From NCBI GenBank assembly GCA_937959115.1, contig CALGAW010000010.1, forward strand, positions 63,357 to 127,356: a stretch of DNA of 64,000 bases. Direction: 5' to 3'. Positions 25,915-31,282 of the stretch are shown here, piece by piece. Source of the DNA: an uncultured Saprospiraceae bacterium (GTDB taxonomy: Bacteria > Bacteroidota > Bacteroidia > Chitinophagales > Saprospiraceae). The notes beneath the pieces are model-generated. The model saw nothing but the letters and a program-made list of their open reading frames with translations, did no database searches and was not told the origin of the DNA. A program made the position numbers and the translations under genes. The stretch's first letter is position 1; each line of letters opens with the position of its first letter.

Positions 25915-26277
25915 TTATTCAGAGTAGTTTACGATTGCTTTAACAACCTTTTTGTTGTCATTAAATATCATTAATTCAGCAGATTTTTTATTTGTTGCTG
26001 TATTTATATAATAGATAGTAATACTATTAACTCCGATTAATACATTAATAATTTCAAAGTGTAAATTAGGGTTTGATTCGAGTCCAATATTCCAATATTT
26101 TCTGACATTATCTTTTCCAATTACGATTCCATTAGTTTCAGGAAGTCTTTTTAAAGCAAGTGGACTCTCAATCGTAAAATCATCAGTATAATGAGATAAT
26201 ATTTTTTCGAGATTATGAGAATTCCAATCTTTTGTCCAATTTTCGGAGAACTGTTTAGCGAAATCTATGGTTATCAT
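25915..26277 (-). CDS. SnoaL-like / NTF2-like small protein
   Basis: 'FAKQFSENWTKDWNSHNLEKILSHYTDDFTIESP' fits the SnoaL fold. The track's N-terminal extension to 26352 is generated by the CATATG inside repeat copy A, so the start is probably the internal Met. Confidence 0.5.
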   Translation of the reverse strand: MITIDFAKQFSENWTKDWNSHNLEKILSHYTDDFTIESPLALKRLPETNGIVIGKDNVRKYWNIGLESNPNLHFEIINVLIGVNSITIYYINTATNKKSAELMIFNDNKKVVKAIVNYSE

Positions 26278-26302
26278 ATTTTGTTGTTTTGAGCTTGTAG
26301 AG

Positions 26303-26363
26303 AACGTTTCGCATATGCGACGGCATAACCGAATGGGAAGGCTGGACGTCATATGCTTTTGTT
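26303..26363. repeat. Direct repeat copy A (~61 bp, internally palindromic: CGCATATGCG … GCATATGCGACG/CGTCATATGC)
   Basis: It is ~87% identical to copy B at 27555-27615 and in the same orientation. It sits 4 nt 3' of the Fic stop codon. Confidence 0.75.
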
Positions 26364-26367
26364 CGCT

Positions 26368-27444
26368 TTAGTCTTCTTTCCTATCCTTATCACTAATCAC
26401 ATAAATTGTTGCCCTTGCTTTTCCAATTCTTTTTACTACTCCTTCATCCGACAAATACTTCATATCCTTTTTTATAGTAGCTGAAGTGTAGTCTGTTATT
26501 GATGTCGTTATATCGCTAATTTTCACCGGTTCATTTTCTTCAATAAATTTCACCAATTCCTTTTGCCTTTCATTCAAGTAACTTTTCTTTTTCTTTATCT
26601 TAGCGTATCTATCCTCCAATTTATTTATCGTTGCTTCCAGTGTTTCTAAAAAAAACAGAATCCATTGATTAATAATTTCTTTCTTCGTTCCCCGATTTTT
26701 CTGAGCACTCATTAGTGCTTTATAGTATTCCTTTTTTTTCTTTTCTATTTCAATTTCCATTGAGGCATATCGCATAAAATCATACCCTTGTTTCAATAGC
26801 AATAAGGTTGTTAATAACCTTGAAAGCCTTCCATTTCCATCTTGATATGGATGGATTGATAAAAATTCATACACGAAAGTTGCAATAATTATTAATGGGT
26901 GTAATTCTTCATTTTCTAAATTCTTGTTTGCCCAACCAATCAAACTTTCCATTTCTCCTTTTACCAAAAAGGGATCAGTTGTATTGAAAATTATTTTTTG
27001 ACGCCCACCAGGATAATTTGCTACTACTTTATTTGATAATTTCTTGTAATTACCTCTATGACTTTCATCTTTTGAACTTACCTGCAATAATGACTTATGA
27101 AGATGATGGATATGATTTTCCTTTAGGTCTATTGCATCATAAGAATCCAAAATTATATTTAGTACCTCATAATATCCAAATACTTCTTGCTCATCTCTTG
27201 TTTTAAATGAAGTAATTTTTACGGCGTTGATCAGATTTTTTACTTCCTCATCAGTTAATGTTGAACCCTCAATTCTTGTTGACGATCCAATGCTTTCAAT
27301 TGTGGCTATTTGCTTTAATTCTTTAAGATAAATCGATTCTTTAACTTCTAGTCCCGTCCATTTCCCTCTAAATGAATCTATAAAGGCTATCTTCCTTATT
27401 ATTTGCTGATTGGTTTTAAAATCGAATGTTAACTTGGATTCCAT
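26368..27444 (-). CDS. Fic family protein (AMPylase), class II with an N-terminal inhibitory helix
   Basis: 'HPYQDGNGRLSRLL' is the Fic motif HPFx(D/E)GNGR. 'SSTRIEGS' matches the (S/T)xxxE(G/N) inhibitory motif. The C-terminus is wHTH-like. The track's TTG start at 27480 lies inside the upstream tandem repeats, so ATG 27444 is preferred. Confidence 0.8.
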   Translation of the reverse strand: MESKLTFDFKTNQQIIRKIAFIDSFRGKWTGLEVKESIYLKELKQIATIESIGSSTRIEGSTLTDEEVKNLINAVKITSFKTRDEQEVFGYYEVLNIILDSYDAIDLKENHIHHLHKSLLQVSSKDESHRGNYKKLSNKVVANYPGGRQKIIFNTTDPFLVKGEMESLIGWANKNLENEELHPLIIIATFVYEFLSIHPYQDGNGRLSRLLTTLLLLKQGYDFMRYASMEIEIEKKKKEYYKALMSAQKNRGTKKEIINQWILFFLETLEATINKLEDRYAKIKKKKSYLNERQKELVKFIEENEPVKISDITTSITDYTSATIKKDMKYLSDEGVVKRIGKARATIYVISDKDRKED

Positions 27445-27461
27445 TACAAAATATTTGATAT

Positions 27462-27528
27462 TTATCTGATTTTTATCCAAAAATAAACTTAATTATTGAA
27501 TTATCTGATTCTTATCCGATTTTTATCC
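27462..27528. repeat. Short tandem direct repeats TTATCTGATT(T/C)TTATCC / GATTTTTATCC (three or four units) upstream of Fic
   Basis: Units lie at 27462-27478, 27501-27517 and 27518-27528, with a degenerate fourth unit. Confidence 0.5.
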
Positions 27529-27554
27529 GATTATTTTTCTTATAGATTGAAGGC

Positions 27555-27615
27555 AACGGTTCGCATATGCGCCTGCCTGACCGAATGGGAGGGTTGGACG
27601 TCATATGCTTTTGTT
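27555..27615. repeat. Direct repeat copy B (~61 bp); it supplies the last four codons and the stop of the pAgo-associated gene
   Basis: The reverse complement of 27601-27615 is 'AACAAAAGCATATGA', encoding N-K-S-I-stop. Confidence 0.75.
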
Positions 27616-28758
27616 AGGTGGAGTTTTTCTCATGTTTAAAAATAGGTGATAAACTTCTATTGGCATCTGGTTGTAAAGAAAAGTTCCTATTGCAATTTTA
27701 ATGTTAGTGAATATTGGAAAATTTGCCGTACTATCGATAATGAGCTTTTCTTGAAATTCTGAAGAATAGTCAAACTCTTGTATGAACGTTAAATATCTTT
27801 GCCAAATGTCATTGAAATTTGAATTGTTTACATATACTACTGCATAGTTTCTTGATAGACCATTTGGGTCATAGTTGAGAGTCAATTTATTTAAGTGCTT
27901 AGATATATATTCTGTTTTAATAGATGATATTACAAAAGCTTCGATTATCGAAAGAGGATATTTTTCTTCTTTTGTAAATACTTTTAAATCCAATTCACCA
28001 AAAGTATTACCTGTACCAGAAACTCCTCTTTGACTTTGATTCTCTACAGTAAAATTCATTGACAGCATTGAGTGTAAAACACTATTGTATTGATCTTCAT
28101 TATTATTAAATAGTCTGTGTTTACTTTGAATTTCTCTTGTTGAAAAAAGGACTGCTTCTAATAATTCTTTCTTATCTTTTTCATATTGAAGAACTTGATT
28201 ATTCTTGAATTCAAGAAGCAACAGTAAGTGTATAATGTCATCTAAATCAAAATTGGCAGGGTATTGCAAGTCATTATAGCTATCCTTTAAGAATCTCTTT
28301 TTTAGAAGTTTGGTTTCGAAGTTCTCTTTGTTGTTGCCAGAAAGATCCTGAATAAATTGACTTTCATATTCGGAAAATATTTTCGAAATGAGAAATTTTA
28401 CTCTTATTGATTTATGTTCAAACCATTCATTGATTAACGACTGATATCTAAAATCATTTTCATTTTTGAACAATAGAGATATACCTATGATATGGAAAAC
28501 AGAAATTGACTTTTTAATGATAGGGTTACTCAGTTGGCTATATATTTCATCAAACTTAATTTCAGGAGAATTAATGCTTAAAAAACCATAAGCGGCTGAC
28601 TTTTCCAAAAAGCCTTCAAAAGAATCGATAATTGACTCAATTTGAGAATTGTCAATTATTTGTGAAATATATTGAAAGCATAAACCTCCTAAGTCAAAGT
28701 GGTTACTATACCGTGCTTGAAGTTCTGATATTTTGGAAGCCAAATTCATAGAAACCAT
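27601..28758 (-). CDS. pAgo-associated protein of unknown fold (candidate effector), translationally coupled to the upstream Argonaute
   Basis: It overlaps the pAgo gene by 13 nt and shares its strand and AT-rich composition. I recognise no SIR2, TIR or TM signature. A weak 'ELDLKVFTKEEK' stretch could be a PD-(D/E)xK-like element. Confidence 0.6.
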   Translation of the reverse strand: MVSMNLASKISELQARYSNHFDLGGLCFQYISQIIDNSQIESIIDSFEGFLEKSAAYGFLSINSPEIKFDEIYSQLSNPIIKKSISVFHIIGISLLFKNENDFRYQSLINEWFEHKSIRVKFLISKIFSEYESQFIQDLSGNNKENFETKLLKKRFLKDSYNDLQYPANFDLDDIIHLLLLLEFKNNQVLQYEKDKKELLEAVLFSTREIQSKHRLFNNNEDQYNSVLHSMLSMNFTVENQSQRGVSGTGNTFGELDLKVFTKEEKYPLSIIEAFVISSIKTEYISKHLNKLTLNYDPNGLSRNYAVVYVNNSNFNDIWQRYLTFIQEFDYSSEFQEKLIIDSTANFPIFTNIKIAIGTFLYNQMPIEVYHLFLNMRKTPPNKSI

Positions 28759-30797
28759 GGTGAATTGTCGGGCATTGAAATTTGGGACATGTAAAAGCCA
28801 TCGACTAGTTTTAGTTTACTACTCATTCGAGCCATTAATTTTGAATACTTTATACTTATTGGCGAAGCCTGCTTATTAAAACTCGAATGAGACAAGTTTG
28901 AAAAATCATAAACTTGTTTTGCTAGGTATTCCATATTTATAACATTAGATCTTCTATCAATTTCTATTTTGCAACAAGTTGAACTGTTCTTTCTTAGTGC
29001 TATAAAGGACAATACCTCATTCACATTTATATATGTACCTCTTGGTAAATCAACTAATATGGTCGATTCTTGATCAGTATTTTTTTTATATTTATTAAAT
29101 CTAAAATTATGTCCGTCGCCCACATAGACAAAAGAATATTTAAATTCAATTCCCTTAAAACCTTCGATCACACTATTCAATGCTTCTATTTCATTACTGT
29201 AACCTGGTTTCTTGAATAAATGAAAGACTAAATAGACCGCCTTAGAAGAATCTAAAATTTTAGCTTCTAGGCAATTGTTTATATTTTTTGTTAAAACAGT
29301 GTATAAATGCTTGTTATAATCTTCAACACTAGTTACAGCAGCTACATCTCCTACAAGATATTTTCCATCACCCCTAAATACGGAAGTCATTCCTATTTGA
29401 GGAATGCCTTCTTTGTCTGTTGTCGCCCCAACTCCAATGACAAGTTCATTTCGATGTTCTCCTTTTGGCTTTACAGTCCAAGCAGCCCCGCCTAATTTGG
29501 CATAAATATTTAGAGATATAGTGTGATCAGCATAATTAGTAAAACCAGATTTGTGATCTGCAATGAACTTGTTAATTTGTTGGATTTGGACTTCTTGACT
29601 ATTAATACCTCTTTTGATGAATTCAGCTTTACAAAAGTAATATGGTGATTCGTGTATAGGTAGTAATTCATGTATCTCATCAACTACAACAATCGCAAGA
29701 TCTATATCTTTCGCATTTTGAAGAATTTCTTGATAGGATTTTAAATTAGAATCTTCAATTGGAAAAGTTTCGTATTTAAAGTTTTCTTTTGGGATTCTGT
29801 AAATAGTGCAGAGTTCTTCCTGTATAGCCTTAGTGAAAGTCGCTATTTTTAGATGGTGCTCTTTAGGGAAAACCACTCCAATGGTAATATCTTTGTTTTC
29901 AAAATTATCATAAGTTGTAGGCTTGTTATATTTTATTTTACTTCGCATTGCATACTTTACAGTATTTGCAGGTGGGGTTGCATTGCGATAAAAATAATAT
30001 TTGGGATCTTCCAATTTTTCAAAACAACTTTTGTGAATTACGCTGGATTTTTTTTGAAAATCGGATTTTACAATTTTTTCAATTTTACAGCTTCCTGGTA
30101 GTTTGAAATCTGCTTTATTGGGATTGAAAAATTCTTTCACAAAAGCTTTGCAGCAAGTTATTTGAATACTTTCTTCAGTTAGCTTCTCAATTGATTTTTT
30201 TAATTTGCTAGAGTCCCCATATAAGTTGCTTATTTTATAAATGGCAGTTGAGTCAGCTCTAACTTTTCCGTTATCTAGGATTGTTAGGTTGTCAGTAGAT
30301 AGATCATTGTCATTAAATTCCTCAAGTCCCCAAGTTATCTGATGGCTGATTCCAGAGGTAATATTGAAGCCATACTTTAGTTCGTTATTAATTATTAACG
30401 AACTGAATGTTAGGTTGTAGCTTCTGTATGTGTTCAGATATGGAAAATCATTGTTTGAGATATCTACGCGATAATCAGTGATTCTAATTAGTCCAAACGA
30501 TTTTGTTATGAATAATTTTGGTTCAGAATAAAACTGATTCAACATTGATTCTGAAATGATTTTAGAAATTAGAAAGTCGTCAACACCTTTTTTAATATTT
30601 TGAGTAACTACTCTGTCAAAAGCTATGTTGCCCCATATGTAAACTTTATCTCTAAATCTCAAAAAGGTTGAGTTGTTATATTTATCTCTGAATGATTTTA
30701 GATTTTCAGGATTTCTATATTCGATTGACTGGATATCAAATGCTGAATGAGATAACTCAATTTCATGCCAGTTACTTCTTATCAATTCCTTAATCAT
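28746..30797 (-). CDS. Prokaryotic Argonaute, catalytically inactive (long-B-like) with MID and degenerate PIWI domains
   Basis: The PIWI architecture is conserved: '…ISLNIYAKLGGAAWTV' (KLGG), 'ELVIGVGATTD' (in place of IGxDVxH, first Asp to Gly), 'VYLVFHLFKK' (RDG to HLF) and 'FVYVGDGHNFRF' (in place of the QKRHHTR element). The MID domain reads 'SPYYFCKAEFIKRGINSQEV…NKF', a Y-K-Q-K-type 5'-phosphate pocket. Confidence 0.8.
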   Translation of the reverse strand: MIKELIRSNWHEIELSHSAFDIQSIEYRNPENLKSFRDKYNNSTFLRFRDKVYIWGNIAFDRVVTQNIKKGVDDFLISKIISESMLNQFYSEPKLFITKSFGLIRITDYRVDISNNDFPYLNTYRSYNLTFSSLIINNELKYGFNITSGISHQITWGLEEFNDNDLSTDNLTILDNGKVRADSTAIYKISNLYGDSSKLKKSIEKLTEESIQITCCKAFVKEFFNPNKADFKLPGSCKIEKIVKSDFQKKSSVIHKSCFEKLEDPKYYFYRNATPPANTVKYAMRSKIKYNKPTTYDNFENKDITIGVVFPKEHHLKIATFTKAIQEELCTIYRIPKENFKYETFPIEDSNLKSYQEILQNAKDIDLAIVVVDEIHELLPIHESPYYFCKAEFIKRGINSQEVQIQQINKFIADHKSGFTNYADHTISLNIYAKLGGAAWTVKPKGEHRNELVIGVGATTDKEGIPQIGMTSVFRGDGKYLVGDVAAVTSVEDYNKHLYTVLTKNINNCLEAKILDSSKAVYLVFHLFKKPGYSNEIEALNSVIEGFKGIEFKYSFVYVGDGHNFRFNKYKKNTDQESTILVDLPRGTYINVNEVLSFIALRKNSSTCCKIEIDRRSNVINMEYLAKQVYDFSNLSHSSFNKQASPISIKYSKLMARMSSKLKLVDGFYMSQISMPDNSPWFL

Positions 30798-31180
30798 TCT
30801 TTTATTTTAATACTGACTAACGTAAGAAAATTATATTGATTTTCAATAAATTATACAATGAAAATTATCACAAATTTCGATTCGTTAGCGTTGTAGGTTT
30901 ACTTCCAAAATACTATCTGCTCAAATTTACTAGCATTTTAAAAGTGAATTTGAGGGATTGGATTTGGGAAGGCCGTTGAATTCCACCTAACATCTATATA
31001 AACGCGACTTTCATACCTCAATCACGTATATATTACTAATGTTCGCACCAAATTACAACTTTTTATCATTACCTCCTAAGAACGTTCTGCACGATAAGCC
31101 ATGCACAACAAATGAATTTAACGCATGATAGTTCTCTAACTTTTGGTAAAATTACTGCAATGCTACCTTTTCATTCAGTA

Positions 31181-31217
31181 ACAAAAAAGTCCACAGCAGT
31201 ATAAGCAACTGTGGACT
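31181..31217 (-). terminator. Rho-independent terminator for the flotillin operon (GTCCACAG…CTGTGGAC followed by a T-run on the minus strand)
   Basis: An inverted repeat at 31187-31216 is followed by TTTTTT when read on the minus strand. Confidence 0.5.
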
Positions 31218-31282
31218 CGTATGTTTTAAACCTAGGACGGATCAGAGCAATTCTTCGTTAAAAAACGCGCTGGCACGAATCC

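Follow-up and report, generated by a model that had tools for sequence, protein, structure and literature searches.

The window analysed here, a stretch of 64,000 nucleotides from contig CALGAW010000010.1 of an uncultured Saprospiraceae bacterium, carries on its minus strand a gene for a prokaryotic Argonaute (pAgo) of the long-B class and, directly behind it, a gene for a protein that we call the partner. We consider it probable, with some reserve, that the two genes form a BPAN-type long-B pAgo defence operon that acts by abortive infection and in which the nuclease domain of the partner has been swapped. In the most economical reading of its sequence, the partner would be a chimera of a bAgaN-type N-domain and a restriction endonuclease (REase)-fold module, unrelated in sequence to the bAgaN nuclease, from the effector pool of conflict systems. 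That catalytically dead long-B pAgos act with downstream effectors has been established before, the system type is likewise known from anti-plasmid and anti-phage defence, and the pAgo of the window is a new member of this known class, a confirmatory result. The novelty lies in the effector, which is putatively chimeric, and in the large domain family, so far unannotated, to which its C-terminal part belongs.

The partner family is tied to the pAgo by gene order. Its 25 homologues lie on the same contigs as pAgo homologues, and in 12 of 12 distinct close-clade loci (from Aquimarina, Saprospiraceae, Lewinellaceae, Hymenobacter, Caldilineaceae, Anaerolineae and Phycisphaerae) a member of the family is found directly downstream of the pAgo. 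The pair spans Bacteroidota, Chloroflexota and Planctomycetota. Since the partner is always the next gene while the other neighbours vary, the functional unit is one of two genes, with the layout of a BPAN operon (pAgo upstream, effector immediately downstream). At most close-clade loci the two reading frames meet in ATGA or TGATG; the ATGA overlap in the window suggests translational coupling. An earlier note on this DNA had claimed that the pAgo works with a downstream effector, and the conserved, coupled gene bears out this partnership, although the partner gene itself was not analysed there.

The partner has no match in Pfam, PADLOC, NCBIfam, PHROGs or the PDB, either by sequence or by profile. 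We regard a weak match to Elongator (E = 0.003), located in the helical N-domain, as a spurious coiled or helical similarity. The AlphaFold2 (AF2) model of the protein (pLDDT 85) is that of a soluble, two-domain protein, and its plan of an N-terminal regulatory domain followed by a C-terminal PD-(D/E)xK-fold domain is that of a BPAN effector. Two other types of long-B partner do not fit: (i) a SIR2 partner (BPAS), as there is no SIR2 match in Pfam or PADLOC and no relative of GbbAgaS in the 25 loci searched, the window's own (L001) included, and (ii) a membrane partner (BPAM), as the maximum 19-residue Kyte–Doolittle hydropathy is 1.53 and the hhalign probability for EabAgaM is 0.13%. Residue numbers of the partner are given throughout in a 385-aa frame.

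The origin of the N-domain is indicated by a sister clade of pAgos that are 25–31% identical to that of the window. The downstream gene in these loci, of ~350 aa, is matched both by the partner-family profile and by EcbAgaN, the effector of the Escherichia coli system EcBPAN. A transitive homology of the whole proteins through these doubly matched loci is ruled out, however, because the two queries cover different domains: the partner-family profile matches the sister partners only in residues 4–185 (E = 1e-12 to 2.5e-25) whereas their matches to EcbAgaN are confined to the nuclease domain at the C terminus (best E = 1e-12). For the N-domains alone, hhalign aligns the window family and the sister partners with a probability of 99.6% (E = 8e-25). 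A profile of this N-domain retrieves at least 152 proteins, and 119 of the 120 listed carry PF18742 (REase_DpnII-MboI) in their C-terminal part. The PF18742-bearing proteins that share the N-domain are roughly 304–358 aa long, and two N-domain proteins that were spot-checked lie directly behind a pAgo gene with a 13-nt overlap. This yield of PF18742-bearing proteins, together with the pAgo-adjacent spot checks, identifies the N-domain as the standard adaptor of bAgaN-type effectors; its homology to the bAgaN family runs through these PF18742-bearing, pAgo-adjacent proteins. The variant found in the window is rare, with ~25 proteins compared to at least 120 of the canonical type.

The C-domain of the partner tells a different story from that of the N-domain. 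Its model has the REase fold, with BamHI and BglII as top structural neighbours, but the RecB2/DpnII-MboI nuclease (PF18742) with its D-EVK motif that characterizes BPAN effectors is absent, and the motif here reads D257...E273-A-F275. It is quite unlikely, in our estimate, that the system is an ordinary BPAN whose C-domain is a bAgaN nuclease diverged beyond recognition, with no domain exchange. Such divergence would be in keeping with the PD-(D/E)xK fold, size and layout common to both proteins, with the N-domain that the window partner shares with bAgaN-type proteins and with the presence of N.BspD6I and Can2, reported as structural neighbours of EcbAgaN, among the weaker structural matches of the partner model. 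Yet PF18742 matches EcbAgaN and the sister partners with E = 1e-31 to 1e-42 and has no match on the window family. The hhalign probabilities are 0.04–0.3%, with 0.3% for the window-family and bAgaN-type C-domains, and the partner family as a whole shows no similarity to EcbAgaN by hhalign. The motif layouts also differ (E...D...E-x-F plus HxxK in the window family, D...EVK in bAgaN). Extreme divergence is disfavored because the window C-domain has clear homology to domains of proteins that are not Argonaute-linked: it aligns end to end with a Roc-COR copy (29% identity, E = 5e-30) and with an LmuA-like copy (34% identity, E = 1e-32). Homology to the sister partners ends at approximately residues 185–193 and the shared module begins at approximately residues 205–221, which fits a recombination junction in the linker helix and thus a swapped rather than a diverged domain.

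Searching 1.84 billion cluster representatives with a C-domain profile returned 1,159 proteins at E ≤ 1e-3, 836 of them at E ≤ 1e-10. More than 1,000 clusters at 50% identity make up the family, for which there is no Pfam, NCBIfam, PADLOC or PHROG model. Among the matches listed, which range from ~110 to 1,450 aa, the domain lies at or within ~30 residues of the C-terminal end. Ten fusion proteins were scanned and include five LRR-Roc-COR GTPases, one protein that matches the Lamassu LmuA model, one with a weak NACHT match, one with a GNAT domain and one with HSDR_N and a 'predicted pPIWI-associating nuclease' domain; no Pfam model covers the C-domain on any of them. A C-terminal placement on Roc-COR, LmuA-like, weakly NACHT-like and pP_pnuc_1 proteins is typical of toxic effector domains. 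No pAgo lies near the Roc-COR protein whose copy was aligned with the window C-domain. One of the fusions, P0121 (987 aa), combines HSDR_N_2, a 'predicted pPIWI-associating nuclease' (pP_pnuc_1) and the window-type C-terminal module in a single protein and is a further link of the module to PIWI-related conflict systems. Weak but recurrent matches to DUF6602, described as distantly related to the PD-(D/E)xK nucleases of RmuC, Cas and CBASS, are seen in 5 of 17 members of the window family (best E = 0.011). A literature search found no description of this effector variant; the C-domain family may correspond to a REase clade that Kaur et al. 2020 termed 'previously unreported'.

Seven residues are strongly conserved in 145 members of the C-domain superfamily: E221 (93%), D257 (98%), E273 (99%), H288 (99%), K291 (96%), D297 (95%) and H371 (97%). 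The window partner keeps all of them. The active site is atypical, in that the E...D...E-x-hydrophobic pattern is combined with HxxK on the following helix. These conserved positions are compatible with a metal-dependent active site of the REase fold whose basic residue would be supplied by the helix after strand 3. Among related known systems, BamHI, BstYI, OkrAI and BglII-type enzymes and the CdiA-CT(EC869) DNase toxin have only 6–10% sequence identity to the C-domain. The third motif position of the BamHI-type enzymes is E or Q, whereas it is hydrophobic in the window partner, and neither they nor the toxin have a stated counterpart of its HxxK, its YD...G...N motif or its C-terminal histidine.

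The pAgo itself is an intact 683-aa reading frame on the minus strand, at the position given in the earlier note, and all of the peptides quoted there are present in the protein: SPYYFCKAEFIKRGINSQEV (residues 384–403), ISLNIYAKLGGAAWTV (427–442), ELVIGVGATTD (451–461), VYLVFHLFKK (521–530) and FVYVGDGHNFRF (556–567). Its identification as an Argonaute is secured by the PADLOC pAgo model (E = 2.4e-125), which is covered from position 7 to 656 of 656, and by a phmmer search of the PDB, which returns only EcAgo (2.5e-28), RsAgo (1e-19) and AfPiwi (7e-9). The check by hidden Markov models that had been proposed for this identity gave a divided answer, in that the PADLOC model matches while the Pfam Piwi, MID and PAZ models have no match to the protein at E ≤ 1. 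PF02171 is present on homologues within the clade; the window protein is too divergent for this model, and the class assignment therefore rests on PADLOC, the PDB and structure.

The protein belongs to the long-B class, which is given here by proxy from profile E-values and a Foldseek ranking rather than from a formal tree. A profile of the 35-member clade matches EcAgo (5.4e-70), RsAgo (1.4e-46) and AfAgo (5e-20) in the PDB, while its best match to a catalytically active long-A protein is CbAgo (4.2e-5). Foldseek of the full-length AF2 model (pLDDT 83, pTM 0.83) ranks RsAgo (TM 0.80, E = 6e-40) ahead of CbAgo (TM 0.64, E = 4.5e-28), so that both the long-B assignment and the AlphaFold comparison proposed for it in the earlier note hold up. 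The RsAgo-type equivalog of NCBIfam is ruled out, as the protein scores 109 bits against a cutoff of 700. The AF2 model and the RsAgo alignment indicate a full-length architecture (N, L1, PAZ*, L2, MID, PIWI) and not a short MID–PIWI protein. Consistent with this, neither Pfam nor PADLOC finds APAZ, TIR, SIR2 or DUF4365, as expected of a protein outside the short pAgo class (SPARTA/SPARSA/SPARDA); the absence of SIR2, TIR and APAZ from the pAgo had been noted before. The lack of a PAZ signature had been noted as well. In the model, as judged from its secondary structure, the PAZ position (approximately residues 155–230) is taken by a small helical insert of ~70 residues without a β-barrel, in keeping with the reduced PAZ* that long-B proteins typically have. 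The PAZ domain of EcAgo is comparable, with ~60 residues (PMC13535254).

We mapped the functional residues through an HMMER alignment to EcAgo and the EcAgo numbering of the EcBPAN cryo-EM structure (PMC13535254). The slicer tetrad positions G457/E492/F528/K653 correspond to EcAgo G492/E532/Q568/D700. The first is Gly in 34 of 35 clade members and the third is Phe or Tyr in all 35; the first, third and fourth are never acidic in the clade. A tetrad of this composition makes the pAgo inactive as a slicer, and the catalytically dead PIWI domain of the earlier note is upheld with three of four positions non-acidic. Its statement that every catalytic position is non-acidic applies to G457, F528 and K653 but not to E492, the glutamate finger, and its fourth catalytic position was misplaced: the residue is not on the strand FVYVGDGHNFRF but is K653 in 'IKYSKLMARM' by the EcAgo alignment. 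The proposed 5′-phosphate pocket of the MID domain is present, and its residues Y386/K390/Q401/K434 (EcAgo Y426/K430/Q441/K469) are invariant in the 35 clade members, but the last lysine is K434 in YAKLGG rather than that of 'NKF'. The C-terminal residues are W-F-L, as in EcAgo, where the terminal carboxylate binds the Mg2+ ion at the 5′ phosphate of the guide (PMC13535254). Judged by these residues, the pAgo is a putative guide-binding, non-slicing long-B protein.

A mechanism for the operon can be proposed by analogy with EcBPAN, in which RNA-guided recognition of DNA triggers the degradation of genomic DNA (PMC10620215; PMC13535254). The non-slicing pAgo would most likely load small 5′-phosphorylated RNA guides and, once loaded, would recognize complementary invader DNA; the use of RNA guides and DNA targets is in both respects a projection from EcBPAN and RsAgo. 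Target binding would then recruit or release the partner through its N-terminal helical domain, again as we infer from EcBPAN. The REase-fold domain would thereby be activated for indiscriminate DNA degradation that could kill or arrest the infected cell; both the DNase activity of the partner and abortive infection are modeled on the E. coli system.

Four observations weigh against a swapped-nuclease BPAN operon. First, the lysine position of the (D/E)xK motif (275) is always Phe or Leu in the 145 superfamily members, and catalysis would, on this pattern, need H288 or K291 of the following helix. Second, the N-domain of the partner has no similarity to that of EcbAgaN by hhalign. The recruitment of EcbAgaN in EcBPAN uses its loop Q81–R90, and this lack of likeness implies that the EcBPAN recruitment mechanism may not transfer. 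Third, the pAgo of the window retains an acidic residue, E492, at the glutamate-finger position, which is variable across the 35-member clade; the finger is also acidic in EcAgo and RsAgo. Fourth, in a Lewinellaceae metagenome-assembled genome (L003/L007; L003 10040–11181) the partner is split by a frameshift into reading frames of 111 and 269 aa, with an IS66 element immediately upstream of the pAgo gene. On a short Logan contig (L004), an identical pAgo is accompanied by an intact 375-aa partner, and the split is either an assembly error or a recent inactivation.

Because the canonical lysine is missing, it is possible, if unlikely, that the C-domain is not a nuclease, but a degenerate REase fold that serves in DNA or ligand binding or in oligomerization, or an enzyme with a different substrate; the system might then mediate RsAgo-like interference without cell death, or the partner might help to generate guides. 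The absence of any library model that annotates the domain would be compatible with such a role. RsAgo illustrates that no dedicated effector is needed for a long-B pAgo to act, and a role in guide acquisition has been reported for certain nucleases associated with pAgos, among them ACE1. However, acidic, His and Lys residues are 93–99% conserved at the positions expected of a metal-dependent REase active site, and BamHI (E113) and BglII (Q95) are active enzymes that lack the lysine. The C-domain also fills the C-terminal effector slot of NTPase-type conflict proteins, and a bona fide DNase occupies the same position in the sister systems. A nuclease exchanged for that DNase remains our preferred reading of the C-domain.

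The third and fourth observations might alternatively be taken as signs of an active, long-A-like slicer, to which the retained E492 would belong, or of a decaying, non-functional pair, of which the frameshifted partner beside IS66 would be an instance. We reject both as highly improbable. The tetrad has G, F and K at three positions at which no clade member carries an acidic residue, and the match to the best long-A protein falls 65 orders of magnitude short of that to EcAgo; the tetrad and this match place the protein outside the slicing long-A class. Nor does the window look like a locus in decay: both reading frames are intact, the MID pocket and all C-domain residues conserved at 90% or more are present and the pair is conserved across phyla. 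The coordinates of the operon and its parts are collected in Table 1.

Table 1. Coordinates in the window of the pAgo–partner operon, its domains and the upstream region
Feature	Position	Strand	Basis and remarks
Long-B pAgo gene, 683 aa, intact	28746..30797	-	Open reading frame; TGA stop at 28746–28748 included; PADLOC, PDB, AF2/Foldseek
pAgo residues 1–299: N, linker 1, reduced PAZ*, linker 2	29901..30797	-	AF2 secondary structure, RsAgo alignment, EcAgo boundaries; limits approximate
pAgo residues 300–449: MID with 5′-phosphate pocket Y386, K390, Q401, K434	29451..29900	-	EcAgo alignment
pAgo residues 450–683: inactive PIWI*, tetrad G457/E492/F528/K653, conserved C-terminal W-F-L	28749..29450	-	Mapped to EcAgo
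Overlap ATGA of pAgo stop and partner start	28746..28749	-	...CCA TGG TTT CTA TGA ATT...; start chosen by gene callers
Partner (effector) gene, 382 aa	27601..28749	-	Open reading frame from ATG at 28749; in-frame ATG at 28758 gives 385 aa
Partner all-helical N-domain, ~residues 4–190, putative pAgo-binding/autoinhibitory adaptor	28189..28749	-	Profile and hhalign homology to bAgaN-type N-domain
Partner C-terminal REase-fold domain, residues 205–385	27604..28146	-	Conserved E221, D257, E273, H288, K291, D297, H371; ExK lysine position F275
Upstream intergenic region	30798..31282	-	Terminator-like hairpin of preceding flotillin-like gene, then GC drop
Terminator-like hairpin, strong	~31181–31217	-	GTCCACAG-N12-CTGTGGAC then TTTTTT; read straight from sequence

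Among known systems, EcBPAN (EcAgo and EcbAgaN; PMC10620215, PMC13535254, PDB 23wq) resembles the operon in plan. In both, an inactive long-B pAgo lies upstream of an effector of ~385 aa in a two-gene operon, and in both the effector consists of an N-terminal regulatory and a C-terminal PD-(D/E)xK-fold domain. EcAgo is the best solved sequence relative of the window pAgo (E = 5e-70) and shares with it the MID residues Y-K-Q-K, a Gly at the first tetrad position, the retained Glu finger and the C-terminal Leu. It aligns with the window protein only over L2–MID–PIWI, however, and its third and fourth tetrad residues are Q and D instead of F and K. EcbAgaN differs in having a PF18742 ('RecB2') C-domain with the D-EVK motif, neither of which is found in the window partner, and an N-domain without detectable similarity.

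The sister-clade BPAN systems of Bacteroidota/Chloroflexota type (Tenacibaculum singaporense, Ancylomarina salipaludis, Agriterribacter humi; L013–L024, L026 and L027) are related over the full length of the pAgo, at the identity given above, and have a partner gene that overlaps the pAgo 3′ end and encodes a homologous N-domain. Their partners, of ~345 aa, carry a PF18742 domain homologous to that of EcbAgaN, whereas the window partner carries the other module. The overlap is also constructed differently. Instead of the ATGA of the window clade, the partner of the sister clade starts inside the codon for the invariant C-terminal Trp of the pAgo (xxA TGG TTT AT. stop), yielding 'MVYL...'. In 10 of 11 loci, the codon that precedes TGG has A at its synonymous wobble position, evidence that the overlapping ATG is maintained by selection.

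RsAgo from Rhodobacter sphaeroides (PDB 5awh, 6d8p) is the best full-length structural match and resembles the window pAgo in its inactive PIWI*, reduced PAZ* and 5′-P MID pocket, but sequence similarity between the two is confined to MID–PIWI. The Roc-COR, LmuA-like (Lamassu) and NACHT-like proteins share the C-domain family of the partner, with 29–34% identity over ~172 aa at or near the C-terminal end. Those proteins join the domain to an NTPase or a sensor, whereas the partner joins it to a pAgo-specific adaptor, with the sensing role left to a second polypeptide, the pAgo. RsAgo is ~100 aa longer than the window pAgo and is not known to have a dedicated effector in an operon.

The operon lies in an AT-rich stretch of the window, from ~24 to 31.1 kb, as the earlier note had observed of its surroundings. 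Mean GC is 0.308 in the seven consecutive 1-kb segments between 24 and 31 kb, compared to 0.391 ± 0.033 in the rest of the window, and GC at third codon positions is 0.25–0.27 in the six genes of this stretch, compared to 0.31–0.37 in genes just outside. The border on the pAgo side is sharp, with GC rising from ~0.31 to ~0.46 between 31.0 and 31.4 kb, and falls just past the terminator-like hairpin that closes a flotillin-like (SPFH) gene. The stretch was probably acquired horizontally. There are no tRNA genes in the window, no Rfam families in 25–31.5 kb and no integrase or transposase among the neighboring genes scanned. One neighboring protein has a type IX secretion system sorting domain (Por_Secre_tail), and the nearest homologues are from Bacteroidota, which makes this phylum the probable one of the host. 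The GTDB species representatives scanned number 185,579 and do not include the window's own genome; the exact pAgo protein is recorded only on one 210-kb NCBI/ENA contig and one 4.6-kb Logan contig.

The promoter of the operon must lie within 30798–31180, between the pAgo start and the hairpin. A sigma-70 scan, which does not cover Bacteroidota promoters, is uninformative, with 24 sites compared to 30.8 expected in shuffled sequence. A terminator consensus scan returned nothing relevant and missed the hairpin because of its 12-nt loop.

The gene directly downstream of the partner (26368–27480, minus strand) encodes a Fic/DOC protein with a C-terminal winged-helix helix-turn-helix (PADLOC SoFic E = 3.8e-45; Pfam Fic 3e-16). 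A Fic gene accompanies the pAgo pair only in the window and not at the other loci, and therefore has the appearance of an additional defence gene, independent of the pair, within the low-GC islet. It is bracketed by a direct repeat of 105 nt (26271–26375 and 27523–27627), whose copies are 77–80% identical with an exact 16-nt core. The two copies are the only ones in the window (chance expectation 0.00), and each begins close to the stop codon of a gene on the minus strand, that of the partner or that of Fic. Both can fold the same GCAUAUG...CAUAUGC hairpin, with z-scores that are not significant. The repeat has no Rfam match, is absent from the loci of other organisms and may mark the boundaries of a cassette or serve both genes as a terminator. 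Its position on either side of the Fic gene suggests that this gene was inserted between the partner gene and a SnoaL-like gene (25915–26352, minus strand). The first ~25 codons of the SnoaL-like reading frame lie inside a repeat copy; this N-terminal stretch is probably an artefactual extension, and the true start is likely the Met of 'MITIDF'.

Long-B systems are the least-studied class of Argonaute, and those dissected so far are one nuclease-type (EcBPAN), one Sir2-type and one membrane-type system. The locus described here and its ~25 relatives keep the sensor and the adaptor and carry another nuclease module, which makes them a natural experiment on whether adaptor-driven activation is independent of the catalytic domain. 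We tentatively suggest, as a possibility that falls somewhat short of probable, that pAgo effectors are modular, with a pAgo-specific adaptor and interchangeable toxic modules, and that the C-domain represents a large unannotated REase-fold effector family common to Argonaute, Roc-COR, NACHT-like and Lamassu-like systems. If this is true, activation through the BPAN adaptor would be independent of the nuclease attached to it, and the family would constitute a new DNase in broad use for abortive infection. Establishing the activity of the C-domain in the simple setting of a two-gene pAgo system would annotate more than 1,000 protein clusters at once.

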